Source: Candidatus Fermentimicrarchaeum limneticum (GTDB lineage Archaea > Micrarchaeota > Micrarchaeia > Burarchaeales > Fermentimicrarchaeaceae). Taken from it: a DNA stretch of 64,000 bases. Below are positions 40,538-56,415 of the stretch, in pieces. The notes beneath the pieces were generated by a model that was given only the letters and a program-made list of their open reading frames with translations, made no database searches and had not been told where the DNA came from. The DNA is taken from contig CP058998.1 of NCBI GenBank assembly GCA_013426015.1, forward strand, positions 724,071-788,070, in the 5' to 3' direction. The position numbers and the translations under genes are program-made. How positions within the stretch are numbered: position 1 is the first letter of the stretch; every line of letters starts with the position of its first letter.

Positions 40538-41143
40538 ATGCCGGTATTCATAGACTCAAGGATTTGCGATAATCAGGATGTATGCGACGTTAAGAAGATC
40601 TGCCCGAGTAATGCAGTCTCGCTTGACAAAAAGGAAGGGATGATAATTGACAGTGCGAAATGCACAGGGTGCCTGCTCTGCCTGAAGGCTTGCCCTTACC
40701 TTGCCGTGAAGCTTGCCAAGGATGAGAATGAGCTTGCTGAGTTCAGGAAGAAGCTGAAAAGAGCCAAGCTGGACAGAAGGGCGCATATCGCAAAAATCTA
40801 CGGGACAAAGCTCGGCAGGGTCGGGAGGGTACAGCTTAAAGATTCTAATTTCAGGAAGAAGGTTGACTCGAAAGTGCCAACGTTGGTCGTTTTCTGGGGG
40901 GCCCATAGCGGGGTCATGGCTCCTCTGCTGAGGGAGGCTGGCAGAAGGCACAGGAACAAGCTGAGGGTAGCATACGTAAAATTTGCTGACAACCCAAAAA
41001 CTAGCAAGAAATACGCAATAGCCACCACCCCCACCCTTGTGCTTTTCAGGGAGGGGAAGGAGATCGGAAGGCTGGATGGGATAAGACACCGGGAGACTCT
41101 GAGGGTGTGGATTGAGACGAAACTGAAGCCTAGTCCTTCTTGA
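40538..41143 (+). CDS. 4Fe-4S ferredoxin domain fused to a thioredoxin-fold domain lacking the CxxC active site
   Basis: N-terminal CTGCLLCLKACP motif; C-terminal thioredoxin-like region with WGAHSG in place of WCxxC. Confidence 0.55.
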   Translation: MPVFIDSRICDNQDVCDVKKICPSNAVSLDKKEGMIIDSAKCTGCLLCLKACPYLAVKLAKDENELAEFRKKLKRAKLDRRAHIAKIYGTKLGRVGRVQLKDSNFRKKVDSKVPTLVVFWGAHSGVMAPLLREAGRRHRNKLRVAYVKFADNPKTSKKYAIATTPTLVLFREGKEIGRLDGIRHRETLRVWIETKLKPSPS

Positions 41144-42232: not shown

Positions 42233-44743
42233 CTATTTTATTACAAAAACAGTTGCAGTCTTCTCATCCTCATCTGGCAGAGCATCTGAGTAAATCTCTC
42301 CCTTAAAAGTATGAATTTTTAAAAGCTCAACATTTCCTTTTTCGAACTTTTCTTCTGCGTATGGAGTTGCATCACTATAGGTGGTTCCCAGAATGACTTT
42401 CTTGAAGCCAGCCTTCTCTGCTAAATCCTTGACAAAACCGATCGAGGCTTCGTATATCTCATTCGTATTCTTGTAAGAGCTTGTTATGTTTATGGAATCT
42501 ATTATCAGAGTGGATTCACCCCCGATCTTGCCTGCGAAGAGCCATGCCTGCCCGATTCTCTGTTCTTTTCCTTCTTTTGTTATGGATATCTCGGCTATTT
42601 GAGTCGCAGCATCCATCATGTAGATAGGTAGAGTCCACCTGTTACCTCCATTAAAAGCAACACAGCAACCCGAATCGTTCCCGTTTGTCAAGGCAGTCAA
42701 CGGGTTTTTATCACTCAATTTCACCGAGATTATAATCTCCCCTGCTTCGCCTTTCATCGGCTTCACAGGCATGCCGAGCAATCTTTCAATCTCCTGAACA
42801 TGGAATAGGGCAGTTCTAGCCTCGCCTTTAATCTCCTCTGAGTCTACTACCATCGAACCAGGCGTTCCTGTGGTCTTTAGATACTTCTCAAGCACCGACA
42901 CTGCTTCCTTTGACCATTTTTTATCATTTGACAGCATCATCTCAATTATTGCCTTTGCTCTCTCCTCTGGGGTTTTGTAGTCCCGTGCATCAAGAGAGGT
43001 CAGTTCCGCAAATACCTTTCCCGGCTTCTTGAAAACCTCCCCTTTCGGGTTGCTGAAAAGCTGCATCACCACATCCTGGAACGTATCATTGATGTGCTCC
43101 TCTCCTGCCTCCAGCTTCTCAATTCCTGTTAATGTTTTCTTGAAGACTACTTTGTCAATCCCCTTGTAGTAGACGTAGACATCGGTATTTATTCCAAGCT
43201 TGTTCATTTCTGTGAGTGCTTGCTTATTCTCTTCTAGTGAGTCGTAGTACTTTTGGAAGGTGTTTTCAAGCCCGTACTTTATGAGTATCCTTACTTCCTC
43301 GTTTTTTTCAATAAAATCTAAACCAGATATCATTTTGATAAGATATTCCTTCTGGTCTTGGGCTATTTTTTCAAATGGGAATTTCACATCTTCCGCTATT
43401 TTCTTAGCGCCTAGGTCAATAAGCTGTGCAGAGAAGTCCTGCAGCTTGAGCCGGGAGAGCTCTTCTTTTGAGAAATTGGGTATATAACTAATAAGACGGG
43501 GATTTTTCAACAGACTAGTCACAGCAGAACTTAAATCTTGCATTGTTAATCTTTTTCCCTCTGTTTGTGTTAACAGCGCACCTAACACCTTTTCTCTCTC
43601 TCCCCAAGATTCAATAAACCCCTCCTCTTTTAGTTTTTCGTTTAACAAGTCTTCTAATTTTTTAATTTCTGATATCCACCCACTCATTTCTTCTTTGGTT
43701 TTTATGATTCCCTCCATTGCTAGATTTACAAGATTCCCTCTAATTTCAAAATCATAAAAGATATCGCAGGCTACATCTGCCACCTTTGCCCTTTTTTCAA
43801 TCTCTGGCACCCAGTCTCTCAGTTCCTCAACGGTTTTTGCCACTCCTGTTTTTACTAGTGAATCCAAATACTTCGAGCCTATTTGCCGCGTGGATGAATT
43901 AGCAGAAATAAGTTTGAAGTCTAACTCATCGTATACGCGGTCTAATCTTTTTATATGGCGTACGTCGGATTCATATAATTTCACTAGTTTTTTAAGGTCT
44001 TCTGAGGATTTTACCATGTCTTTTTTTACCAATTCGGGTAGATGGTTGCGGCATACGTACTTACCCCATAAATCATTAAACTTGAAGTCTCTCAATAGGT
44101 CTGCTTTTGCTAGGTTTGGGAAAACAAAGGATATGGGCAACCCACCGAGCTCTCTTCCATGATATTCTGCGTCCCGTGTTAATTCATGTAGTTTGACTAT
44201 TGCGTGTAAGTCATTCGGGGATTTTATCACTCCCTTATCCAACATAAGTTGTAGACTGTCTCCCCACATGATATTGCTGATAGTGATTAGTTCTAAACCG
44301 CAGCACCCTAAGTCATTCGGGGATTTTATCACTTCTTTCTTTCCTAGTTTCGAAATAAATTCATCCAGATCTATCGGTCCAACTGAGATTCCTTGATGCT
44401 CGGAAAGATATTTATGCAATCCGATCAGCTTTTTTCCATACCTTTCCAAATCTTCCGTGTCTTTTATCAGACCACTCTCTCCAAGCAGTAGGAAACCTCT
44501 TTCGAAATTCATCCAGTAACGTCCAGGTTCTGATAACTCGTATAATTTATGCAGGGCTGTAATGTTTTCAGGTGTGACCTTAAGGCGCATTCCTTTCAGT
44601 ATTCTCTCGTGAATCTCTCTTTCATAGGAGGGGATTTTCGCCAGCTCCCTCTTCATTCTCTGCTCAGGGATTTCAGGCTTTATGCGCTCTGTTTCTACTG
44701 GCTGCTCGGCAGGCGCTTCAATGGGTTTCAGCTTCTCTGGCAT
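42233..44743 (-). CDS. Large hypothetical protein (836 aa) with internal tandem repeat
   Basis: No recognisable catalytic motif; 105-bp direct DNA repeat (~44207 and ~44312) encodes duplicated (V)IKSPNDL segment; no signal peptide. Confidence 0.5.
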   Translation of the reverse strand: MPEKLKPIEAPAEQPVETERIKPEIPEQRMKRELAKIPSYEREIHERILKGMRLKVTPENITALHKLYELSEPGRYWMNFERGFLLLGESGLIKDTEDLERYGKKLIGLHKYLSEHQGISVGPIDLDEFISKLGKKEVIKSPNDLGCCGLELITISNIMWGDSLQLMLDKGVIKSPNDLHAIVKLHELTRDAEYHGRELGGLPISFVFPNLAKADLLRDFKFNDLWGKYVCRNHLPELVKKDMVKSSEDLKKLVKLYESDVRHIKRLDRVYDELDFKLISANSSTRQIGSKYLDSLVKTGVAKTVEELRDWVPEIEKRAKVADVACDIFYDFEIRGNLVNLAMEGIIKTKEEMSGWISEIKKLEDLLNEKLKEEGFIESWGEREKVLGALLTQTEGKRLTMQDLSSAVTSLLKNPRLISYIPNFSKEELSRLKLQDFSAQLIDLGAKKIAEDVKFPFEKIAQDQKEYLIKMISGLDFIEKNEEVRILIKYGLENTFQKYYDSLEENKQALTEMNKLGINTDVYVYYKGIDKVVFKKTLTGIEKLEAGEEHINDTFQDVVMQLFSNPKGEVFKKPGKVFAELTSLDARDYKTPEERAKAIIEMMLSNDKKWSKEAVSVLEKYLKTTGTPGSMVVDSEEIKGEARTALFHVQEIERLLGMPVKPMKGEAGEIIISVKLSDKNPLTALTNGNDSGCCVAFNGGNRWTLPIYMMDAATQIAEISITKEGKEQRIGQAWLFAGKIGGESTLIIDSINITSSYKNTNEIYEASIGFVKDLAEKAGFKKVILGTTYSDATPYAEEKFEKGNVELLKIHTFKGEIYSDALPDEDEKTATVFVIK

Positions 44744-44791
44744 GGTTGAATTATGCCCTTTCTAGCTATTAAAATTATGCTAAAATCAGGA

Positions 44792-44840
44792 GTGGGGCCA
44801 GAGCCGATTAAATTTCAGGTTTTTCATTTGGGCCCATAAA
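44792..44840. repeat. att-like repeat B: partial copy of the tRNA-Trp 3' end plus shared motif
   Basis: TGGGGCCAGAG 11-mer identical to tRNA-Trp 3' end; ~85% identical to repeat A. Confidence 0.6.
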
Positions 44841-44877
44841 TTCCCGCTTTGAGGTATGCAAAATAAAAAAAATTAGA

Positions 44878-45477
44878 CTACTGGCAGCAGTGGAAAGGTT
44901 TGCTGGTGTAGGATGGATCGGCAACTCTATTTGCACCACACTCGTCTGGCAGGTTTTGGACTACAATTGGCATTATTTGACCGCCAGGACTAAGCCACTC
45001 GTTGGACCACTCGCCTCCGGTTGGGATGGTGATTGCTCCAGCATGGCATGCGCCATAAAGTTGCGGTATGTCACACAAAGTCTTGTTTTCACTCTGGCAT
45101 TGCGCCATAGAATCATCTATTGACTTTGCACTATTTGAAGAGGTGTCTATGCAGAAAGCTCCTGCCCTTGTCATATCAGTAGGACATGGAAGTTGGGCTA
45201 TAGTTACTGCTGGACCAGGATTTCCTTGGGATCCTTGCGGTCCGGCTGGCCCAGTATCTCCTTCTGGACCTTGGGGTCCCACCGAACCTGTATCGCCTTT
45301 AGATCCCTGAGGTCCTACATCACCTCTTGAACCTTGGGGTCCTATTGGACCAGTATCGCCCTTCGGACCCTGCTGTCCGGTATCACCCTTCGCTCCTTGC
45401 GGTCCTGCGGGACCTACCTGTGTGCAACCGGCAAAAAACAGCGCTACAATCAATAAGACAATTAAGAGCCTTCTCAT
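44878..45477 (-). CDS. Collagen-like (Gly-X-Y repeat) lipoprotein with Cys-rich C-terminal domain
   Basis: Signal peptide plus lipobox-like [18 protein letters not shown]; ~25 uninterrupted G-X-Y triplets; C-terminal ~110 aa with 8 Cys. Confidence 0.65.
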
Positions 45478-45555
45478 TACCTTCACCCCCAATTATTTAG
45501 TTAGGGCTTTTTAATATATGCATTAGTCAAGATAATCCTTTATAAGATAAATGTA

Positions 45556-45722
45556 TGGGGCCAGAGGGATTTGAACCCTCATTAACAGGTGTCTCATAAA
45601 GCATCTCATCCTTTGTCAATGCTCCAATTCTAAATCATCCCCGAAGGTCATTCCACCTGTAACAATGCTCCTCTACAAAAGGAACTGGAGCCTGTTGTTC
45701 TGCCAAGTTATACCATGGCCCC
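45556..45722 (-). tRNA. tRNA-Trp (anticodon CCA) with ~90-nt intron at or near the canonical position
   Basis: Hand-fold: acceptor GGGGCCA/TGGCCCC+A73, anticodon stem ACAGG/CCTGT with loop CTCCAG..., T-arm GAGGG-TTCAAAT-CCCTC; 167 nt precursor. Confidence 0.7.
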
Positions 45723-46911: not shown

Positions 46912-46969
46912 GATATGATTACGCAAAGGGATATTAATATTTGAGGAGTAATGGTTTAAGGTGATTGAG

Positions 46970-47227
46970 ATGGATGCGAGGGTAGTAAACTACAGGAGGG
47001 GTAAGCACAACGAATACACCAACCAGTATGTAGTTGCCATAGACGGCATGACAAGCAAGGATGAGGCCCTCAAGTATGTTGGCAAGAAAGTCGTATGGAA
47101 GACACCAAGCGGAAATGAGATAGTTGGCAAGATCACAAACACCCATGGGAATGGCGGGGCCATGCTTGCGAGGTTTGGTAAGGGGCTGCCCGGCCAGGTA
47201 TTGGGAAGCATTTTGAGTGTGGAGTGA
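46970..47227 (+). CDS. rpl35ae: 50S ribosomal protein L35Ae
   Basis: ~85 aa, eL33/L35Ae-like; ATG 46970. Confidence 0.75.
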   Translation: MDARVVNYRRGKHNEYTNQYVVAIDGMTSKDEALKYVGKKVVWKTPSGNEIVGKITNTHGNGGAMLARFGKGLPGQVLGSILSVE

Positions 47228-47230
47228 GGG

Positions 47231-47587
47231 ATGTTGATGGAGGCACCTGCCAAACCCGAAGTGATTAGGGACATGGCGGAGAAGCTCAAGGATACCCACA
47301 GATTGATGGCGATATCCGGGATTGACGAGGGCGGCAGCATAACGCTCTGCTATCATTTCTGGAGCATCTCCAGCAATGAGATAATGAACTTGAGAGTAAA
47401 GCTTGGAAAGAGCAATATACGAACCATATCGGACATCATACCAAACGCTCTGTATTACGAGAGGGAAATCCACGATTTGCTGGGAGTTGAGTTCGGAGGA
47501 GCAAAGCTGCACCCGCTGCTCGTCCCTAAGGGGTATAAGAAATATCCCCTGAGAAAGGCTCTTGAGGGGAAGAAGCTCAGCCCTTGA
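47231..47587 (+). CDS. NuoC-like (30-kDa subunit family) component of a [NiFe] hydrogenase / complex I-like module
   Basis: YYEREIHDLLGVEF motif characteristic of NuoC/EchD-type subunits; 118 aa. Confidence 0.65.
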   Translation: MLMEAPAKPEVIRDMAEKLKDTHRLMAISGIDEGGSITLCYHFWSISSNEIMNLRVKLGKSNIRTISDIIPNALYYEREIHDLLGVEFGGAKLHPLLVPKGYKKYPLRKALEGKKLSP

Positions 47588-48431
47588 CTATCTGCATACA
47601 CTGGTCCCTCAAGAGTTCTGTTGCGATGTATGTGCACAGAGTAGGGTTATTCGTGTCCTTTGCTACCTGCGTGTAGCAGCTGTCCCTCAGTGATGCAGAC
47701 GGCAGGTTTTTGCATGCATCGGGGTTCTTGGAGTATACCGCAGCCACATACAGGCAGGCCTGCTTGCCTTGCGATTCAGTTATCTGGTTGCACAAGGCAG
47801 GATCTATGCTTCCTGTCTTGCATAGGTCTTTTGAGAATGGGTTTACTATCTGGTTGCAGAGCGTCGTATCATTGAGCTCCTCTGCCACTGAGAATACGCA
47901 CCTGTCCACGGCATCCTGCTGCGATTCTGGGTTATCGGTCACAATCAGCTTGCAGAAAGCAGTATCCCTGTTCTGTATGGCAAGGTTGGGGTATATCTGG
48001 TTCTTGCAGGTATTCCTTGATATGTTGAGGGATATGCCGTCGCAGATTTCGGGCCTTTCCATAGCAATCGCTATTCCTGAGAGGCAGCTGTCCCGCTGGT
48101 AGCTGGAGTTGATACGCATGCACATGGAAGTGTCATTGCTGCTTGCAGCCAGCCTGCCAAAACACTCGTCCATCAAGTTGCCGGACAGTTTGGCGCACGT
48201 TGAAGAGTTTACGGGGAGATCTGCACCTATGAGCAGCGCATAGCACTTCTCTGAAAGGCTGCTCACAGTTATCTCATCGCATTTTGACATGTTCTTTGTT
48301 TCGACTGCAACTAAGACAAGGCAGTTGTCCTTCTGTGACGGATCCCAGAGGTGGTAACATCTGTCAGGGGACCTATTCTCTAGAATACAGCCAGAGAGAA
48401 ACACAAGCAGTAGCAGCAGCTGTTTCCTCAT
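47577..48431 (-). CDS. Cys-rich tandem-repeat lipoprotein, paralogue of the 37528..38781 protein
   Basis: MRKQLLLLLVFLSGC signal/lipobox; same ~26-aa Cys-pair repeat architecture and N-x-S/T sequons; embedded antisense within the hydrogenase gene cluster. Confidence 0.6.
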   Translation of the reverse strand: MRKQLLLLLVFLSGCILENRSPDRCYHLWDPSQKDNCLVLVAVETKNMSKCDEITVSSLSEKCYALLIGADLPVNSSTCAKLSGNLMDECFGRLAASSNDTSMCMRINSSYQRDSCLSGIAIAMERPEICDGISLNISRNTCKNQIYPNLAIQNRDTAFCKLIVTDNPESQQDAVDRCVFSVAEELNDTTLCNQIVNPFSKDLCKTGSIDPALCNQITESQGKQACLYVAAVYSKNPDACKNLPSASLRDSCYTQVAKDTNNPTLCTYIATELLRDQCMQIVKG

Positions 48432-48522
48432 ATAAGTGATTTATATACGTTACGCAATATAAATTTTTCTAGGAAGCAGCTTTACATAGCCACTTTATGA
48501 GGGTTTACCAAGCGGTGGAACA

Positions 48523-49653
48523 ATGCATGATTCGAAATTGGTAATTGGCCCCTCCCATCCGATGCTAGTTGAGCCTGCAAGACTGGTATTCGGAATCAAG
48601 GATGGGAGAATCAAAAGCGTCGATATTGACCTAGGCTACACCCACAAGGGGATAGAAAAAATGCTTGAGACGAAGAACTACACCCAAGCAGTGCCATTCG
48701 TTGAAAGAATATGCGGGATATGCTCGCACTGCCACGCCTCTAATTTCTGCTACGCTGTTGAGAAGCTCAGTGGGATTGAGATTCCAGAAAGGGCTAAGTA
48801 CATAAGGACGATTGCTGCCGAGCTTGAGAGGGTACACAGTCACCTGCTGGTTCTCTCCCTGACCATGGAGGATATAGGGCAGAGGAAGCTTATGCTGGAA
48901 ACACTGGACAGAAGAGAGAGGATAGTCGATGCATTTGAGGAGTTCACCGGAGGCAGAGTGCACCACTCTATAAATGTAATAGGGGGAACGCGACTGGATA
49001 TTGACAAGGATGCGGCTGGGATGATACGGACTGCCGTAGACGAGGCTACGGAGTACTCCAAGAAGCTTGCCGAAACGATACTCAAAAACGATTCTGTAAG
49101 GAAGCAACTGGAGGGAAATGGCGTGCTGAGCAGAGAGAAGGCAAAGCAACTGGGCGTCGTAGGCCCTGTTGGCAGAGGCTCCGGCATAGATTACGATGTC
49201 AGGAAGGCGAAATCGTATGGAAAGTATTCTGAGATGGACTTTAGCATACCCTTGCACGATGAGGGAGATAGCCTGGCGAGGACACTTGTGAGGGTTGAGG
49301 AGATACCAGAGTCCGCCAGGATAATAAAGGAATGCTTCAGCAGGATGCAGCCAGGGGAGTTGAGGGTGAGATGGGACGGCAAGCCACCTGCCGGTGAGCA
49401 GATACACCTGGTAGAGGCTCCTCGAGGGGAGAATCTGCACTACGTAATTTCAAGGGGAGAGAGGACCCCCTACAGGGTCAGGATAAGGCCGCCCTCTTTT
49501 GCAAACCTGCAATGCGCTGCTACGATATTGGAAGGTGCAAGCGTGTCCGATATACCGGCAGCAGTGATAAGCCTTGACCCATGCATAAGCTGTACCGAGA
49601 GGACCGCGTATATCGACAGGGGAGGCATAGTATATGTTGAGTACAGGGGCTGA
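48523..49653 (+). CDS. [NiFe] hydrogenase large (catalytic) subunit, group-4 (Ech/Mbh-like)
   Basis: N-terminal RICGICSHCH (RxCGxCxxxH-type) and C-terminal DPCISCTER (DPCxxCxxR-type) motifs; 376 aa. Confidence 0.8.
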   Translation: MHDSKLVIGPSHPMLVEPARLVFGIKDGRIKSVDIDLGYTHKGIEKMLETKNYTQAVPFVERICGICSHCHASNFCYAVEKLSGIEIPERAKYIRTIAAELERVHSHLLVLSLTMEDIGQRKLMLETLDRRERIVDAFEEFTGGRVHHSINVIGGTRLDIDKDAAGMIRTAVDEATEYSKKLAETILKNDSVRKQLEGNGVLSREKAKQLGVVGPVGRGSGIDYDVRKAKSYGKYSEMDFSIPLHDEGDSLARTLVRVEEIPESARIIKECFSRMQPGELRVRWDGKPPAGEQIHLVEAPRGENLHYVISRGERTPYRVRIRPPSFANLQCAATILEGASVSDIPAAVISLDPCISCTERTAYIDRGGIVYVEYRG

Positions 49654-50317
49654 GGACACTGTCAAAAAATTCCCAAAGGTCTATCCGCTGGCACTAGCAG
49701 GCTGCAATGGATGCGACATAGAGATAATCGCAACGCTTGGCCCAAGATTCGACCAGGATAGACTCGGGATAGAGGTTGTGAATTCTCCGAAGGATGCACA
49801 TATACTCATGGTTAATGGAACGGTCAACAGGAAGCTCAAGAAGCATCTGAATGGCATATACAAGCAGATGGCCGACCCGAGGATTGTTGTTGCGGTCGGT
49901 TCCTGCGCGATATCAAATGGGCCTTTTAGGGAATGCTACAATATGTGCTGCAGGGTTGATGAGGTTGTGCCCGTTTCAGTTTACATACCGGGCTGCCCCC
50001 CGAGACCGCGAGCTATATTGTACGGGCTGAGGAGGACTCTTGAAAAGTGCCCACCGAATCTCGCTCCCGCTCCACTGAAGACAAGGTCGCGCCTCACCAG
50101 GGACAGGAAGATATGCATAAACTGTGGGGCATGCACGCTGGTATGCCCGTCAAAGGCGTGTTACTTCGTGCAGGACAAGGAGAAGAGGAGGGTGGATTTC
50201 AACCTGGCTTACTGCACATTCTGCGGGCAGTGCGTTGAGGTGTGCCCTGTCAAATGCCTGAAGATGGTGAATGAGTATGAGCTGGCTACGTCCAACAAGG
50301 ATGAGCTAATGATTTGA
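49634..50317 (+). CDS. Hydrogenase small subunit (NuoB-like) fused to a 2x[4Fe-4S] ferredoxin domain
   Basis: NuoB-type Cys (AGCNGCD...GSCAISNGPF...GCPPRP) followed by two CxxCxxCxxxCP motifs. Confidence 0.8.
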   Translation: MLSTGAEDTVKKFPKVYPLALAGCNGCDIEIIATLGPRFDQDRLGIEVVNSPKDAHILMVNGTVNRKLKKHLNGIYKQMADPRIVVAVGSCAISNGPFRECYNMCCRVDEVVPVSVYIPGCPPRPRAILYGLRRTLEKCPPNLAPAPLKTRSRLTRDRKICINCGACTLVCPSKACYFVQDKEKRRVDFNLAYCTFCGQCVEVCPVKCLKMVNEYELATSNKDELMI

Positions 50318-50862
50318 TGAAACTTGTAAAAGACCGTGGAATTGTCCTGATAAGCGTATTCTTCCTTCTCTTGGGAGCATACAACATCATCTACGCGAAG
50401 ATTCTGCTCACGGCATTAAATGAAGTTTCCTGTTTTGGAATGGACTGCATGACACTAGGATTCCTGAGGATGATGGCTTGGATTCTGGGAGCTATAGGCG
50501 TATGCTATATTATAACCGCAATTGTGATACGCCTGCATGAAGTGGGTTGCTATCTTGCAATTGTTGCATCGTGCTTCAACATACTGCTGATGGTAGCATA
50601 CCTGACAAAACTTTCAGTGATGCCAATCTGGATGACCTTCATCCTCCCAGTGAGGATTATTCTCACACAAAGCATCAGCTACTCTCCCTCGCAGGCAAGG
50701 GATCTCCCCTCGATTATGGGAAGTTCTCTGGAAATTCTGATCATCCTGCTCAACATTGGGATTATAGCGTATCTTTTCAAATGTCTTAGAAGAGATGCGT
50801 GGGGTCCAGCGGATAGAAAGCCTAAGCTAGGCGGGTTGGATGAAGAAGAAATAGAGGAATAG
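50317..50862 (+). CDS. Small integral membrane protein, possible anchor of the hydrogenase module
   Basis: ~180 aa, 5 hydrophobic segments, acidic C-terminus; translationally coupled to the small-subunit gene. Confidence 0.45.
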   Translation: MKLVKDRGIVLISVFFLLLGAYNIIYAKILLTALNEVSCFGMDCMTLGFLRMMAWILGAIGVCYIITAIVIRLHEVGCYLAIVASCFNILLMVAYLTKLSVMPIWMTFILPVRIILTQSISYSPSQARDLPSIMGSSLEILIILLNIGIIAYLFKCLRRDAWGPADRKPKLGGLDEEEIEE

Positions 50863-50929
50863 CCGAGCCTGAGTGGGTGGTGGATTTAATTAGAAGGCCC
50901 GGCCATTCGAACGTGAATTGATAATGGCC

Positions 50930-53900
50930 GTGAGTTTTGGAAAGGCTACAGCTCCTTTTAGCAAGTGCAGAGAAGGCTGTTAGTAGTGGACGGGCTCACG
51001 GATCGCTTACGCTTTCCATCTACACCCCCACTCTATCAACAGGATCTGCTATCCTGGCCTTGAACTGCCTCGTTTTGAGAATGGTTTCGACCTTAGATGC
51101 TTTCAGGTCTTATCCTTTGGCGCGTGGCTGCCCGGCGATGCTTGACACAACCGGTATACTAGAGGCGCCGGTTCCCCGTTCCTCTCGTACTCGGGGAGCC
51201 ATACTCTCAAGCAGTCAACACTCCTAGGAGATACTACCGAACTGTCTCGCGACGTTCTGAACCCAGCTCGTGTAAGTCTTTAATGGATGAACAACCCAAC
51301 CCTTGGTGGCTCCTGCACCACCAGGATGACTTAGGCCGACAGCGATGTACCAAACCGCAAGGTCGATATGTACTCTCGCCTGCGACGAGCCTGTTACCCC
51401 CGGGGTAGCTTGTCTGTCAGCTTGGACCCTCAACAAAAGGGATTCCAAGGTTCGTTAAGCCCCTCTTTCGAGTCTGAATCCCACGCTTTTAAGGATTCAG
51501 TCAGCCATGCATTTGTCTTTAACCCTTACCAGCGGATTTCTGACCCGCTTAAGCATAGCATTGGGCGCCCTTGTTTCCTTATCGAGGGCGTACCGCCCCA
51601 GCCAAACTATCCATCTGCCGATGTTCCCTTACAGGTGAGGAACACAGCAACTGAAGAGCAGTGTTTCACTTTCGCATTCATACCCCCCGCAAGGGGCATT
51701 TCGACGCTCCTGCTTACGCTGTGCAACAACCACCGTATTCCAACGACAGACTATAGTAAAGCTCCACGGGGTCTTCGTTTCCCCCTAGAAGTCCTCGGCA
51801 TCTTCACCGAGTAGTGAGTTCACCAGGTCCCAGGTAGGGACAGCGGGACGCTCGTTATGCCATTCATGCAAGCCACCAATTAAGCGGCGAGGTATTACGC
51901 TACCTTAAGAGGGTCAGAGTTACCCCCGCTCTTTGCTGGTGCTTTGCTCCATTGAACTGGAGTTTGACATACCAGTAGTGAGCAGGCATCGCCCCCTATA
52001 CTAAGCCTTTCGACTTTGCAGGGAGCTGTGTTTTTGATATACAGTCGACGTCCCCTTGTCACTGCGACCTGCGATTGCAGCTTGCGCCACAATTGCAGGC
52101 ATGGCTTCTTCCTAAGTTACGCCACTGGATTGCCGAGTTCCCTTACCTGAGTTTTCCTGACACGCCTTGGCTTTCTCTGCCAGCAGCACCTGTACTAGTT
52201 CTAGGTACGATCTCGCGGAATCGCTGCCAGCTTCCTTTTCACGGGCTCAAGGAATCAACGGAACCACCTTGCGGCGGCCTTCCCAGAGTTAGACTGCTTC
52301 TCCTCATAACGAGTCTCTGCAGTCCTGCAGAGGTTAGATGAGCTCTCGCTCACTCCACCTATCCCCAAGCGTCAGAAGTGGCCTTGTGTCACCACGTCTA
52401 CCCACGAGGCACTGGGATCTTAACCAGTTTCCCGTTTGCTCTCGAGTAATTAGCTGAGAGCTTAGGATCGGCTTACTCTTAACTGACGAACATTGTTAAG
52501 AAAACCGTGTGCTATCCGGCGTCCAGGATTCTCACCTGGATTCGCTGTTACTAACACCAAGATATTTATTTCTGACAGGTCCATTGGAGCTCACGCCCCA
52601 ACTTCTACCCAGCCAGAACACCCCCCTACCAGATGATGCTTGTGGCATCCTCCGGGGTCTCGGCACCTGACTTAGCCCCGGTAATCTTCGGAGCCTGCAC
52701 TCTCGACTGGTCCGCTGTTACGCGTTGTTTAAAGGATGGCTGCTTCTGAGCCTACCTTCCAGCTGTTTAAGAATGGGGACTCCTTTGTGATTAGCACTCA
52801 GTCAGGATTTAGGGGCCTTAACCTCGGTCTCGGTCGTTCCCGTCCCGGCACACCAGCTTACCCGGTGCGCCCGACTCCCATCTTCTATGGTGATTATGAA
52901 TTCGGAGTTTGAGAAGACAGTGGAGCCTTTCGGCTCCGTTCTGCCTGATCAGTGCTCTACCTCATAATCAACCTCTGATGGGGCTATCCTACAGGATACT
53001 TCGGGGGGGACCCGCTATCGCCAAGTTCGATAGGACTATCACCCCTACACGCAAGTCACCCGAGCAGATATACTAGCACCGGTTGCGGGCCTCCACCAAT
53101 CGGAGGATCGGCTTCGCCCTGCTCGCGTGTAGATCACATTGGCTTCGGGTCTGCAGGAAGTGATTCATGGCACTTTCGTACCACCTGCCTCACACCTTGC
53201 GGTGCTGCGCAGTCTCGCTTTCGCTCAGCCTTTCGGCTCACCACTTCCAGCAACTCCTTGGCTCTTGCTTCAAGAAGAACGATACAACCCTGCTCAATCT
53301 CCCGTCGCTTTATATATTTCTACATATCGCTTCTGGGAGACCGCATTCCTTTCGGGCTGTACCCTCTGTAGCCACTCAGTTTCAGGTTCTTTTAACTCCC
53401 CTTTCGGGGTGCTTTTCAGCGTTCGCTCGCGCTACTTTACGCTATCGGTCTCAGGTTATATTTAGAGTTGGGAGTTGTTGCTCCCGTGTTCGCGCCCAAT
53501 ACTCGATGGACGCTACTCTGCACATCCCCTCACCCTCCGCTTTTCGCATACGAGGCTGTCACTCTCTTTGGCAGCGCTTTCCAGTGCACTTCAGCTAGAC
53601 GGAAGGAGAATGGAATGAATCACATCTCCTGCAAGTTGCCCTGCAGGATTCGAATTGCCTCTGTGGGGCGTTCAATCGCCTTTACTGACCCCATACCAGT
53701 TGGTTTCTTTTCCTGGGGGTACTAAGATGTTTCAATTCCCCCCGTGCTCCTTCGCCTCTTTTGGAGGTGAATTATTCGGCAATCCCAGGTTCAATGGCTG
53801 CCTGCGCCTACCCTGGGCTTATCGCAGCTTGCTACGGCCTTCATCGCTACCTGAGCCAAGCCATCCCCTGAATGGCATACTCACTGCACTCGTTTTTGCC
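50930..53900 (-). rRNA. 23S ribosomal RNA (boundaries approximate, +/-50 nt)
   Basis: Minus strand contains AGUACGAGAGGAAC sarcin-ricin loop, CUGAAAGCAUCUAAG near 3' end, and 5'-region GGAUGGCUUGGC...GAUGAAGGCCGUAGCAAGCUGCGAUAAGCC. Confidence 0.9.
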
Positions 53901-53991
53901 AGGAACTATAGCTTCTATTCCACTCACGGCCTCATCAATATCAGCCACTTCATTCAGGAAATTTTCCTGAATTGCATATGACGTACGGAAA

Positions 53992-54086
53992 TGGACTCGG
54001 CGAGATGTTCAGCAGTTTGGAAACTACTTTTGAACTCGCGGCCTCCTCCTCGCAAAGGAGGCGCTCTACCACTGAGCTACGAGCCC
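53992..54086 (-). tRNA. tRNA-Ala (anticodon UGC) in the 16S-23S spacer, with ~23-nt intron in the T-loop
   Basis: Hand-fold: acceptor GGGCUCG/CGAGUCC+A73, D-arm GCUC-AGUGGUA-GAGC, anticodon arm CCUCC-UUUGCGA-GGAGG, T-stem GCGAG...CUCGC with TTCAAA[insert]T loop; 95 nt. Confidence 0.75.
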
Positions 54087-54595
54087 ATCGGCTTCAAGAA
54101 CTATTAGGAGTGAGCGTATTGATGTTCGCTTACCTTGCACTCACACTTTTTCATTCTCGTATCATGGAACGAAAATTTAAGGAGGTGATCTATCCGCAGG
54201 TTCCCCTACGGATACCTTGTTACGACTTAGCCCCTCTCATGACGAATTAGCTCGACGAGATCCGAAGGGATCCCGCCTCACTAAAACTTCATTTGAGTGA
54301 CTTGACGGGCGGTGTGTGCAAGGAGCGGGGACGTATTCACCGCTCGATGTTGACAAGCGATTACTAGGGATTCCAGCTTCATGAGGGCGAGTTTCAGCCC
54401 TCAATCCGAACCTAGGCCGAGTTTGGGGATTAGCTCCTCCTCTCGGAGTGGCAACCCATTGTCTCGACCATTGTATGCCACGTGTAGCCCGGGAGATTCA
54501 GGGCATACTGACCTACCGTTGCCGTCTCCTTCCTCCTGTTTAACACAGGCAGTCCCAACAGAGTGCTTCATCTCCGGAGAGATGAATAGCAACTG

Positions 54596-55105
54596 TCAGC
54601 GACGGTCTCGCTCGTTTCCGGACCGCATGAGTGCTTTTTTTACTTCGGAGTGCTTCATAGAATCCTTGACAAAAACAATGAATTCCCTTGGAGTCATTAT
54701 TGCCAGCCTTCCTTTGATGAATCTGGTTCTGAAGCCCAGAAGCTCAAGTAGCATCTGGTCCTTGTACGAAGCACGCGCCAGGTAAGGCGTGTCCCCCTCT
54801 ACCCCGCCGCAGGAATCGAACATCCCTGCAACGTATGAGGAGGAGTATCTGTTCCTTTTCCTGAAAACATCTATTTGATTCTTCTCAGCTCCCTCAAAGA
54901 ATGTCCTGTACGCTGAATGATAGAAGTACACGTCCCTGTCAGTCATCTGTATCTTCTCTGGAGGAATCTTCAGCGTCTTCATTATTTCTTTCAGGAAAAT
55001 CTCCCTGATCTCTCCGCTGCCTCGTATTCCGATTCCACTGGGAACCCTCCTTCCTTTCCATAAACCTATTAGGTATGCCAGTTCAGGCGTCATTTTAATT
55101 CTCAT
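54596..55105 (-). CDS. LAGLIDADG-like homing endonuclease ORF encoded in the 16S rRNA intron (motif 1 degenerate)
   Basis: Two LAGLIDADG-type motifs (LAYLIGLWKG lacking acidic residues; YVAGMFDSCGGV); ORF 3' end runs ~22 nt into the downstream exon. Confidence 0.6.
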   Translation of the reverse strand: MRIKMTPELAYLIGLWKGRRVPSGIGIRGSGEIREIFLKEIMKTLKIPPEKIQMTDRDVYFYHSAYRTFFEGAEKNQIDVFRKRNRYSSSYVAGMFDSCGGVEGDTPYLARASYKDQMLLELLGFRTRFIKGRLAIMTPREFIVFVKDSMKHSEVKKALMRSGNERDRR

Positions 55106-55147
55106 TCTCTCACTCCAAAACGGATGCACTCATGCGATTTACCGGAC
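54618..55147 (-). mobile_element. 16S rRNA intron (archaeal bulge-helix-bulge type) carrying an endonuclease-like ORF
   Basis: Insertion between GGUUAAGUCCGG and AACGAGCGAGACC; flanks GCAUGAGUGC / GCACUCAUGC can pair; GUCCGG duplicated at both junctions. Confidence 0.8.
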
Positions 55148-55287
55148 TTAACCGGACACTTCACAGCACGAGCTGACGATGGCCATGCACCACCTCTCGG
55201 CTCGTCAGGTAAGATCTTCAGTCTGACCTTCATACTGCCGTCGCTCCCGGTGATATTCCCGGCGTTGAATCCAATTAAACCGCAGCA

Positions 55288-55330
<43 letters not shown>

Positions 55331-56415
55331 ACCTTGCGGCCGTACTCCCCAGGCGGCAGACTTAACACTTACGCTACGGCACTGCCACAGCACTAAGCTA
55401 TGGCAACACCACAGTCTGCATAATTTACTGCTAGGGCTACTCGGGTATCTAATCCGATTCGTTCTCCTAGCCTTCGTCCCTCACTGTCGGACGCGTTTTG
55501 GCCAAGCGCCTTCGCCACTGGGAGTCCTCACAGGATTAACGGATTTTACCCCTACCCCGTGAGTACTCTTGGCCTCCCCCGCTCCCAAGCCCGTCAGTAT
55601 TCTCTGCACTCCTTCAAGTTGAGCTTGAAGATTTCACAGAGAACTTAGCGGGCCAGCTACGGACTCTTTAAGCCCAATATTCGTGGATACCACTCGAGCT
55701 GCCGGTGTTACCGCGGCGGCTGTCACCGGTCTTGCCCAGCTCTTATTCCGCAAGCTCCTTAAGCTTACGAAAAGATGCTCGCGTGGAGCATCACTCAGAA
55801 TCCCCTCGTCACGCTTTCGCGCATTGCGAAGGTTTCGCGCCTGCTGCATCCCGTAGGACTGGAGCCCTTGTCTCAGTGCTCCTCTGGGGGCGCCAACTCC
55901 CATTGCCCCCACCGATTATCGGCTTGGTGGGCCGTTACCCCACCAACTACCTAATCGGAAGCAGTCTCATCCTAAGGCAGACATGGCTGCATTTCGCCAC
56001 GCTGTTTGGGCTATGAAGCTTTCCAGCATCCATAACCTATGTGGTATTAGCCTCAGTTTCCCGAGGTTATCCCCCTCCTTAGGGCAGATTGACCACTCGC
56101 TACTCAGCCGTATGCCACCCCTCCTTGCAGAAGGGGTAGACTTGCATGGCTTAGTCGAATTCTGATAGCAGTACCCTCCAGCAGGATCAACTGGAATTAG
56201 AGCACACTATTCTTCCGCAAGTTCGGCGAAAAGACACCACTATCGCTCACTTCTCCTGTTCTTGAAGCCAGAGTCAAATCCAAACAAGCTTGGATTTCCA
56301 TCGATATTATGCGCTATAGAGGAAGGGTATATCTCACAGCACGAAATAGAATTCGCGCTCCATTTACGCCGTAATCTACAGCGTCCGCACGGCGAAAGAA
56401 GATTATGCACTCTCT

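Follow-up and report, generated by a model that had tools for sequence, protein, structure and literature searches.

A hydrogenase locus at positions 47231 to 50862 of a 64,000-nucleotide stretch of the genome of Candidatus Fermentimicrarchaeum limneticum, a member of the Micrarchaeota (DPANN), encodes an Ech/Mbh-type (group 4) [NiFe] hydrogenase reduced to its peripheral arm (contig CP058998.1; this whole stretch is referred to as the window). Based on a comparison with relatives that carry a complete operon at the same place, the favored reading, held with a probability of roughly 0.6, is a deletion-derived, non-pumping, ferredoxin-linked, and H2-evolving enzyme. An initial annotation of the window had described a stripped-down, ferredoxin-linked group 4 module without the large membrane subunits, a description that the deletions seen against syntenic full-operon relatives support. 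In the following, L001-L179 are the numbers of DNA loci of relatives that were compared with the window; the DNA around eight relatives of the large subunit was examined. All five open reading frames described initially were recovered at the same coordinates, and the locus and its bounds are as follows (aa, amino acids; nt, nucleotides).

46961-47227: ribosomal protein L35Ae, the upstream bound of the operon
47231..47587, plus strand: NuoC-like subunit, 118 aa (PF00329 Complex1_30kDa, E 4e-22)
47577..48431, minus strand: Cys-rich lipoprotein, 284 aa with 21 Cys, no family match
48432..48522: divergent intergenic region with two TATA-like elements and the nuoL deletion scar
48523..49653, plus strand: [NiFe] large subunit of group 4 type, 376 aa (PF00346 and PF00374)
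49634..50317, plus strand: NuoB::NuoI fusion, 227 aa (PF01058, NuoB, plus a 2x[4Fe-4S] domain)
50317..50862 (start 50314/50317), plus strand: Y, a membrane protein of 181-182 aa with 4-5 hydrophobic segments
48480..50090: mosaic core, with a DNA identity to the full-operon locus L167 of only 55-80%
50962-53892, minus strand: 23S rRNA, the downstream bound of the operon
54180-56197, minus strand: 16S rRNA; the archaeal rRNA operon spans 50962-56197

Because it is bounded by the L35Ae gene upstream and the 23S rRNA gene downstream, the hydrogenase unit is complete inside the window. The NuoC-like gene starts 3 nt past the L35Ae stop codon, a spacing that makes co-transcription of the two genes probable, and their adjacency is conserved in L003, L005, L166, and L169. 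At the other end, Y stops 100 nt before the 23S gene, which lies directly downstream on the minus strand, so that the module does sit directly beside the rRNA operon, as first described. Pfam scans identified the surroundings as housekeeping genes, including RNA polymerase, a ribosomal-protein cluster, EF-2, and ProRS. No homologues of NuoH, NuoL, NuoJ/K, HycI, or HypB-F were found in the 64-kb window, either by tblastn (E≤0.1), for which NuoL and NuoH queries matched the full-operon relatives as positive controls, or by Pfam scans of the other open reading frames, and the Hyp maturation machinery and the endopeptidase were likewise missing from the window and from the ~20-kb stretches around relatives. 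The initial annotation was therefore accurate in listing no NuoH, NuoL, or hyp genes (for hyp, a statement about the window only), and the genes it reported as missing are not encoded immediately outside in the same operon, given the two bounds. In GenBank, the hydrogenase proteins are already annotated as "NiFe hydrogenase, large/small subunit".

The origin of the reduced gene set is apparent from two kinds of loci in the same archaeal family of enzymes.

Full locus: NuoC-like / antisense lipoprotein / NuoL-like (547 aa, PF00361)-large subunit-X (272 aa)-NuoB (134 aa)-NuoH-like (281 aa, PF00146)-NuoI (108 aa)-Y
Reduced loci (without NuoL, X, and NuoH): the window, L001/L002, L166, L169, and L177-179

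The full operon occurs in three lineages (L003/L004, L005, and L167/L168), with large subunits 72-75% identical to that of the window. Upstream synteny in L003-L005 equals that of the window (ProRS, Fer4-thioredoxin, HGSNAT, DHH, L35Ae); the L167/L168 contigs begin at the NuoC-like or nuoL gene and extend into the 23S rRNA. The outgroups, comprising the Ech enzymes of Methanosarcina, Caldanaerobacter, and Nitratidesulfovibrio and the bacterial complex-I-like enzymes of L170/L171, all have membrane subunits. Because of this distribution, and because scars persist in the reduced loci, the reduced state is, as judged from the aligned loci, derived from a full membrane-bound operon by clean deletions of nuoL, X, and nuoH.

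Each deletion can be placed closely. The intergenic region contains TATA-like elements (TTTATATA at 48440-48447 and AATATAAATTTTTCT at 48456-48470) in a block that is invariant across 7 loci. In full loci, 1644 nt of nuoL lie between this block and the large-subunit ATG, starting ~15-20 nt after the block and ending in ...GAGGTGAAATGATG, which overlaps the large-subunit start. Reduced loci retain only (G)AGGTG(A/G)A of nuoL before the large-subunit ATG; in the window, the last ~10 nt (GGTGGAAC, 48514-48521) are left as the ribosome-binding site of the large subunit. The X deletion comprises the whole stretch from the large-subunit stop codon to the nuoB start, and the new gene runs in frame into nuoB from what is the start codon of X in full operons, 20 nt inside the large-subunit gene. 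The nuoH deletion spans the last three nuoB codons through nuoI codon ~22 and thereby creates the fusion. All fused sequences share this start site and a junction of the form ..ALEK[CF]P..APAP.KTR, and all deletions keep frames, start sites, and ribosome-binding site.

A different nuoH junction is found in L174/L175, which lack X and NuoH but encode unfused subunits. There, nuoB retains its native end (EMVK-stop) along with the nuoH ATG that overlaps it, and this ATG is joined straight to nuoI to give a truncated NuoI (MPDAPEKTR...). The fused junction has lost the nuoB end codons but keeps nuoI codons that L174 lacks. Since neither junction is derivable from the other, nuoH is concluded from these alignments to have been deleted at least twice. 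L174 was also considered as a wholly independent reduction, which was rejected because its NuoB falls inside the reduced clade (98% bootstrap, neighbor-joining tree) and the X deletion is common to L174 and the fused forms; only its nuoH deletion is independent. In two reduced lineages (L166 and L177/L178), Y has been deleted as well.

The fusion protein combines a NuoB domain (PF01058, aa 24-133) with a 2x[4Fe-4S] domain (aa 155-211) that is NuoI/HycF-like by NCBIfam. NuoB sequence extends to about position 50047, followed by the junction TLEK|CPPNLAPAP (50036-50086) and NuoI without its first ~22 residues; the CxxCxxCxxxCP motifs of the NuoI part lie at 50114-50149 and 50213-50248. The fusion of a NuoB-like subunit recognized in the initial annotation is thus real, but what was taken for an added ferredoxin domain is the NuoI subunit itself. 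The NuoB cysteines of the proximal [4Fe-4S] cluster (GCNGC, GSCA, and GCPP) show no variation in any of the forms or across 144 outgroup sequences. An AlphaFold2 (AF2) model of the fusion has a predicted local distance difference test score (pLDDT) of 81 and a predicted template modeling score (pTM) of 0.80, with residues 1-11 disordered and a lower-scoring linker. The fusion is represented by at least nine sequence clusters at 90% identity.

Fusions of this kind are also seen elsewhere. On a Candidatus Brocadia-type contig (L173:1007-8792), anammox bacteria carry a Fer4-NuoB fusion of the opposite domain order within a regular membrane-bound group 4 operon whose large subunit is a NuoC-NuoD fusion; the joining of a small subunit to a ferredoxin is therefore by itself no sign of membrane-arm loss.

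In the structure of E. coli formate hydrogenlyase, four loops form the interface between the soluble and membrane domains, one of which is the "NDUFS7 loop" at HycG residues 69-80 (PMC9474812), corresponding to GIKVVPSPRHAD in the translated and aligned E. coli hycG. The SPRHAD loop at this position is kept in full Micrarchaeota forms, with R in every full form aligned; across 144 outgroup NuoB sequences, 87-100% retain the H and D of PRHAD. All reduced forms have SPKDAH, SPKNAH, SLENAH, HPQNAN, SSKGAN, or SHKNAN instead, the window carrying SPKDAH (49784-49801). Reduced forms have also lost the otherwise near-universal KSPW at the NuoB N-terminus, and the fused forms lack the N-terminal ~22 residues of NuoI, a segment that, by analogy with complex I structures, would contact NuoH. 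In the large subunit, the His of the beta1-beta2 loop (HycE H188, H12 in the window) is replaced by Asp in two reduced lineages. This interface decay, which among Micrarchaeota is seen only in the reduced forms, fits true loss of the anchor.

The same evidence bears on a competing model, in which the module is still energy-converting and the peripheral arm docks on NuoH-like and antiporter-like (or Mrp-type) subunits whose genes have been relocated elsewhere in the genome. There is a precedent in Thermoprofundales subgroup E, where the Mbh peripheral-arm and membrane-arm genes reside at separate loci (PMC9585477), and the absence of membrane-arm genes reported here is that of the 64-kb window. 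The resemblance to Thermoprofundales extends to the uncoupling of peripheral-arm from membrane-arm genes, and the authors of that study speculate that H2 production may need no more than the four-subunit arm (PMC9585477). In that group, however, a separate genomic locus still holds the membrane genes, whereas in the Micrarchaeota they were deleted from the locus and interface residues have decayed. Relocation is considered distinctly unlikely: the elements that would bind NuoH, namely the PRHAD loop and the NuoI N-terminus, have decayed or been deleted in the reduced forms alone; relocation would need to coincide with two different nuoH deletions; and the 90%-identity clusters of L167 NuoL, X, and NuoH contain no NCBI member, although the flanks of L167 are near-identical to the window.

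A change resembling that of the reduced Micrarchaeota loop was observed in a second, unrelated membrane-less module of group 4 type (L172:4807-8909; GCA_975901545.1, CDLKFB010000028.1), where the sequence at the PRHAD position is PEEAS. This locus encodes, in order, a Fer4 protein, a NuoC-like subunit, an HdrB-like CCG protein, a large subunit (RVCGICSMAH, DPCFSCTDR, and a 23-aa C-terminal extension), and a NuoB-Fer4 fusion (302 aa). It is flanked on both sides by HdrA-like, MvhD(FlpD)-like, and CCG genes, with no NuoH or NuoL within 8 kb, and looks like a group-4-like hydrogenase wired to heterodisulfide-reductase-type proteins.

Retention of function in the remaining subunits was assessed by their rates of change. 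Ratios of nonsynonymous to synonymous divergence (dN/dS) in the reduced clade are 0.06-0.11 for the large subunit, 0.09-0.13 for NuoB, and 0.02-0.10 for NuoI, in the same range as in full forms; these values, like those of 0.03-0.12 for the NuoC-like gene, are approximate because dS is mostly saturated. The corresponding proportions of changed sites are 0.09-0.15 (pN) versus 0.55-0.72 (pS). All cofactor cysteines are kept in the reduced forms (16/16: four Ni-Fe, four in NuoB, and eight in NuoI). Of 92 large-subunit columns with at least 90% conservation across 108 outgroup sequences, the window retains 83, reduced forms retain 79-83, and full forms retain 83-84. Given the low dN/dS and the retention of cofactor cysteines and conserved columns, the reduced module is, on these measures, no pseudogene but is kept under purifying selection. 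Genome reduction is typical of DPANN archaea, and the stepwise loss of nuoL, X, and nuoH, then of Y in some lineages, could be taken to describe a functionless remnant on its way to total loss in a shrinking genome. Such decay is highly improbable in view of the intact frames in at least nine diverged clusters, the excess of pS over pN, the retention of every cofactor ligand together with the conserved columns, and deletions that spare frames, starts, and the ribosome-binding site.

The large subunit contains both types of Ni-binding motif expected of a hydrogenase. L1 (RICGICSHCH) is located at aa 62-71 (48706-48735) and L2 (DPCISCTER) at aa 352-360 (49576-49602), and their cysteines align with HycE C241, C244, C531, and C534, so that four of four [NiFe] cysteines are kept. 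The best solved relative is MbhL (6cfw_L, E 8e-66); in the NuoD-type match 8e9g_D, the positions aligned with the L1 and L2 cysteines are occupied by other residues. The large subunit is accordingly grouped by alignment with hydrogenases and not with NuoD, the non-hydrogenase Q-module subunit, a placement that the initial annotation had left to be checked. Its relatives form a tight family at 71-83% identity, with all other sequences at ≤45%: bona fide E subunits of Ech reach 40-42% and the complex-I-like group 4 enzymes of bacteria 43-45%. In neighbor-joining trees of NuoB and of the large subunit, which include few outgroups, the Micrarchaeota clade is sister to three Ech references. Scans of contig collections with the large subunit yielded, among the matches listed, only Ech-type loci of ~40% identity with the DPCxSCTE pattern.

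To our knowledge, EchA (NuoL-like) and EchB (NuoH-like) are always present in Ech, the group 4e enzyme encoded by EchABCDEF in Methanosarcina, Caldanaerobacter, and Desulfovibrio. The counterparts of both are deleted in the window, whose NuoB homologue (45-55% identity) and NuoI homologue (30-35%) otherwise resemble those of Ech, and whose electron-input subunit is of the same ferredoxin type. Differences also extend to the full Micrarchaeota operon, which is ordered L-D-X-B-H-I-Y with C encoded apart, in contrast to the order A-B-C-(D)-E-F of canonical Ech loci (L006, L016, L026, L040, and L053). Moreover, the Micrarchaeota NuoC-like subunit (PF00329) has no tblastn match in the Ech loci, and X and Y are extra membrane proteins. 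The Ech large subunit stops at the L2 motif, with neither a C-terminal extension nor an endopeptidase step; correspondingly, in Ech loci the large-subunit match stops at query residue 360 and a NuoI-like match begins ~20 nt later. The Micrarchaeota large subunit instead carries a 16-aa C-terminal extension (49603-49650) that is conserved across all Micrarchaeota forms, and its R360 aligns with the HycE cleavage-site residue R537. In a later paper, the genome paper is cited as reporting a group 4e enzyme, and group 4e is described as membrane-bound and respiratory-type (PMC8561730).

A simple model for the reduced enzyme would have ferredoxin, reduced in fermentation, pass electrons to the two NuoI-type clusters and from there via the proximal cluster to the [NiFe] site, where protons would be reduced to H2. 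The enzyme, presumably soluble and catalytically competent, would then vent electrons without coupling and would not act as an energy-converting pump, because no ion-moving subunit is left. As for competence without a membrane arm, an engineered cytoplasmic subcomplex of the Pyrococcus furiosus Mbh is reportedly "catalytically active", in the words of the title of McTernan et al. 2015. Alternatively, the module may have been repurposed for H2 uptake or sensing (for example, ferredoxin reduction from host-derived H2) or for another redox partner. Without coupling, the ferredoxin/H2 couple is near equilibrium and reversible, and the membrane-less L172 module amid HdrA-, MvhD-, and HdrB-like genes demonstrates that such modules can take other partners. 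No adjacent partner genes are present in any reduced locus, however, and the NuoI-type electron-input subunit is the same as that of the full ferredoxin-linked operon, at 80-87% identity. Characterized group 4 enzymes evolve H2 (PMC9356269), which also speaks against repurposing, and this alternative is considered unlikely.

Several observations weigh against a non-pumping, H2-evolving enzyme. An E. coli mutant without hycCD still assembles the soluble domain but has only ~5% of Hyd-3 activity and none in vivo (PMC5061711), so that loss of the membrane arm is not automatically tolerated. Because its C-terminal extension aligns with the HycE cleavage site, the large subunit should require an endopeptidase, but the search of the window revealed none. 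The missing Hyp/HycI proteins and membrane partners are missing from 64 kb of a 1.18-Mb genome. Finally, dS is saturated in most of the comparisons on which the estimates of selection are based.

Two further comparisons place the reduced enzyme among known systems. The MbhJ/K/L/N subunits of the P. furiosus Mbh (group 4d) correspond to NuoB/C/D/I (PMC8165549), and the window retains exactly the equivalents of these four hydrophilic subunits, with MbhL as the best solved match. The Pyrococcus subcomplex is, however, a laboratory construct of a natural enzyme with 14 subunits, whereas the Micrarchaeota lost the membrane arm in nature, heritably and repeatedly and under selection, and have NuoB and NuoI in one polypeptide. 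E. coli formate hydrogenlyase (group 4a) without HycC and HycD likewise represents a group 4 soluble domain without NuoL- and NuoH-like subunits and has the HycE-type C-terminal extension past the L2 Arg; in contrast to it, the Micrarchaeota forms have altered NDUFS7-loop residues, are maintained by selection, and have no formate dehydrogenase partner.

X and Y, for which profile searches against PDB and Pfam returned no family match, are the remaining membrane proteins of the operon. X, present in full operons, has 272 aa and 7-8 hydrophobic segments. Y (QLJ53042.1 in GenBank, "putative membrane protein") follows NuoI in full and reduced loci, and its start overlaps the stop of the fusion gene. 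In L166 and L177/L178, which lack it, sequence that in the window comes after the Y stop codon is found ~40 nt past the fusion stop. Conservation of the ~180-aa membrane protein beside such modules, initially proposed as a point to check, thus extends to both full and reduced loci but fails in these two lineages. Y was represented by 3 clusters at E≤1e-10 among 1.84 billion proteins and is assigned from these distributions as a clade-specific accessory membrane protein. A role for Y as an obligatory replacement membrane anchor was rejected, given its absence from L166 and L177. In the closest reduced relative, an IS605 OrfB/TnpB-type gene (L001:3552-4694, minus strand; PF01385, PF07282) lies between Y and 23S; it is not in the window.

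The Cys-rich lipoprotein gene had been thought to split the operon. It does occupy that position, convergent with the NuoC-like gene (the 3' ends overlap by 11 nt) and divergent from the hydrogenase core genes, but it is no interruption event. A 280-284-aa lipoprotein gene occurs at the same position in L001-L005, L166, L167, and L169, with a partial copy in L177/L178; the L174/L175 and L179 contigs do not extend that far upstream. Because it is found at the same place in all full and reduced loci that do, the gene is regarded as an ancestral neighbor and no insertion. The protein has a lipobox-like N-terminal signal (LLLLLVFLSGC) and no match in Pfam or NCBIfam, and its gene evolves with a dN/dS of 0.06-0.17. 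A single-sequence AF2 model (pLDDT 80) consists of all-alpha helical repeats, for which the fold search returned generic helical-repeat matches and no PDB match at E<0.001. Distant paralogues of 414 aa, with 25-28% identity over repeated segments, are encoded at L003:1-1060 and L005:1-1056 (both minus strand), making the lipoprotein a member of a small repeat family in these genomes.

A sliding-window DNA comparison with the full-operon locus L167 revealed that the window is a mosaic.

47260-48480 (NuoC-like gene, lipoprotein gene, promoter block): 92-100% DNA identity; dS 0.19 (lipoprotein gene)
48523-50090 (large subunit and NuoB part): 55-80% DNA identity; dS 1.95 and 1.69
50100-51100 (3' nuoI, Y, 23S end): 92-100% DNA identity; dS 0.15 (Y)

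The segment altered by the three deletions is exactly the one that the breakpoints enclose. The 3' breakpoint of L174 is the same as that of the window, and L177 combines a fused small subunit with a large subunit closer to the full clade. Because the flanks are 92-100% identical to those of a full-operon locus but the core only 55-80%, the identity profile leads to the conclusion that homologous recombination between diverged lineages has exchanged the core cassette. Flank-gene identities and 23S segments gave no clear species tree and no direction for the cassette swap. A broader proposal, tentative and given slightly less than even odds, is that in this Micrarchaeota clade the pumping arm has been excised repeatedly under selection (nuoH at least twice, Y later), that both cassettes are exchanged by recombination such that near-identical backgrounds carry either, and that coupling would therefore be switchable, with changes of the NDUFS7-loop type marking coupling-only residues.

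Other features of the window were recorded alongside. A ~3.5-kb stretch (42233-45722), missing between the HGSNAT and DHH genes of L003 and L005, has a G+C content of 0.41 versus ~0.50 and is possibly an insertion; it encodes an 836-aa protein without a Pfam match, an intron-containing tRNA (45556-45722), and a lipoprotein-like protein of 204 aa with collagen triple-helix repeats (PF01391, E 5e-14). The 16S gene (54180-56197) measures 2018 nt against a 1478-position model and therefore carries a ~540-nt insertion, within which an open reading frame (54596-55129, minus strand) encodes 177 aa without a Pfam match at 1e-4. LAGLIDADG-type open reading frames are found in or beside the rRNA genes of relatives (L003 14353-15045 and L174 1708-2457), and the 23S gene of L168 has a ~760-nt insertion. 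Upstream, at 40538-41143 (plus strand), a Fer4 domain with one or two [4Fe-4S] motifs is fused to a thioredoxin fold with a weak HyaE-like match (PF07449, E 0.003); in L003/L004 and L005, this gene has a conserved syntenic position ~7 kb upstream of the hydrogenase.

No living enzymes are more closely related to respiratory complex I than the group 4 hydrogenases, and how peripheral-arm chemistry drives ion movement in the membrane arm is still an open question of mechanism. No description of the missing membrane arm of the Micrarchaeota enzyme was found in the literature outside the text of the genome paper; the subunits had already been annotated and cited as group 4e, and the loss of the arm appears to be undescribed. 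In terms of metabolism, the description "group 4e membrane-bound, respiratory-type", as worded in PMC8561730, implies an ion gradient, which the genes at this locus cannot supply, and the metabolic picture of this organism is corrected accordingly. Laboratory removal of the arm crippled the E. coli enzyme (PMC5061711), whereas in nature it was lost at least twice, with what is left maintained by purifying selection. Sister lineages with the full operon at the same locus thus provide a natural side-by-side comparison of what the pump is for. Residues changed only in arm-less forms, first among them the PRHAD/NDUFS7 loop and the NuoI N-terminus, are candidates for a role in coupling only, and the module of three proteins may offer a compact, soluble H2 catalyst driven by ferredoxin. 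The mosaic pattern represents allele exchange at a bioenergetic locus in DPANN archaea. More generally, if the proposal of exchangeable cassettes is true, the energy coupling of H2 production would be switchable and polymorphic as a trait, and changes in the reduced clade such as those in the NDUFS7-loop motif would mark coupling-only residues of the complex I superfamily.

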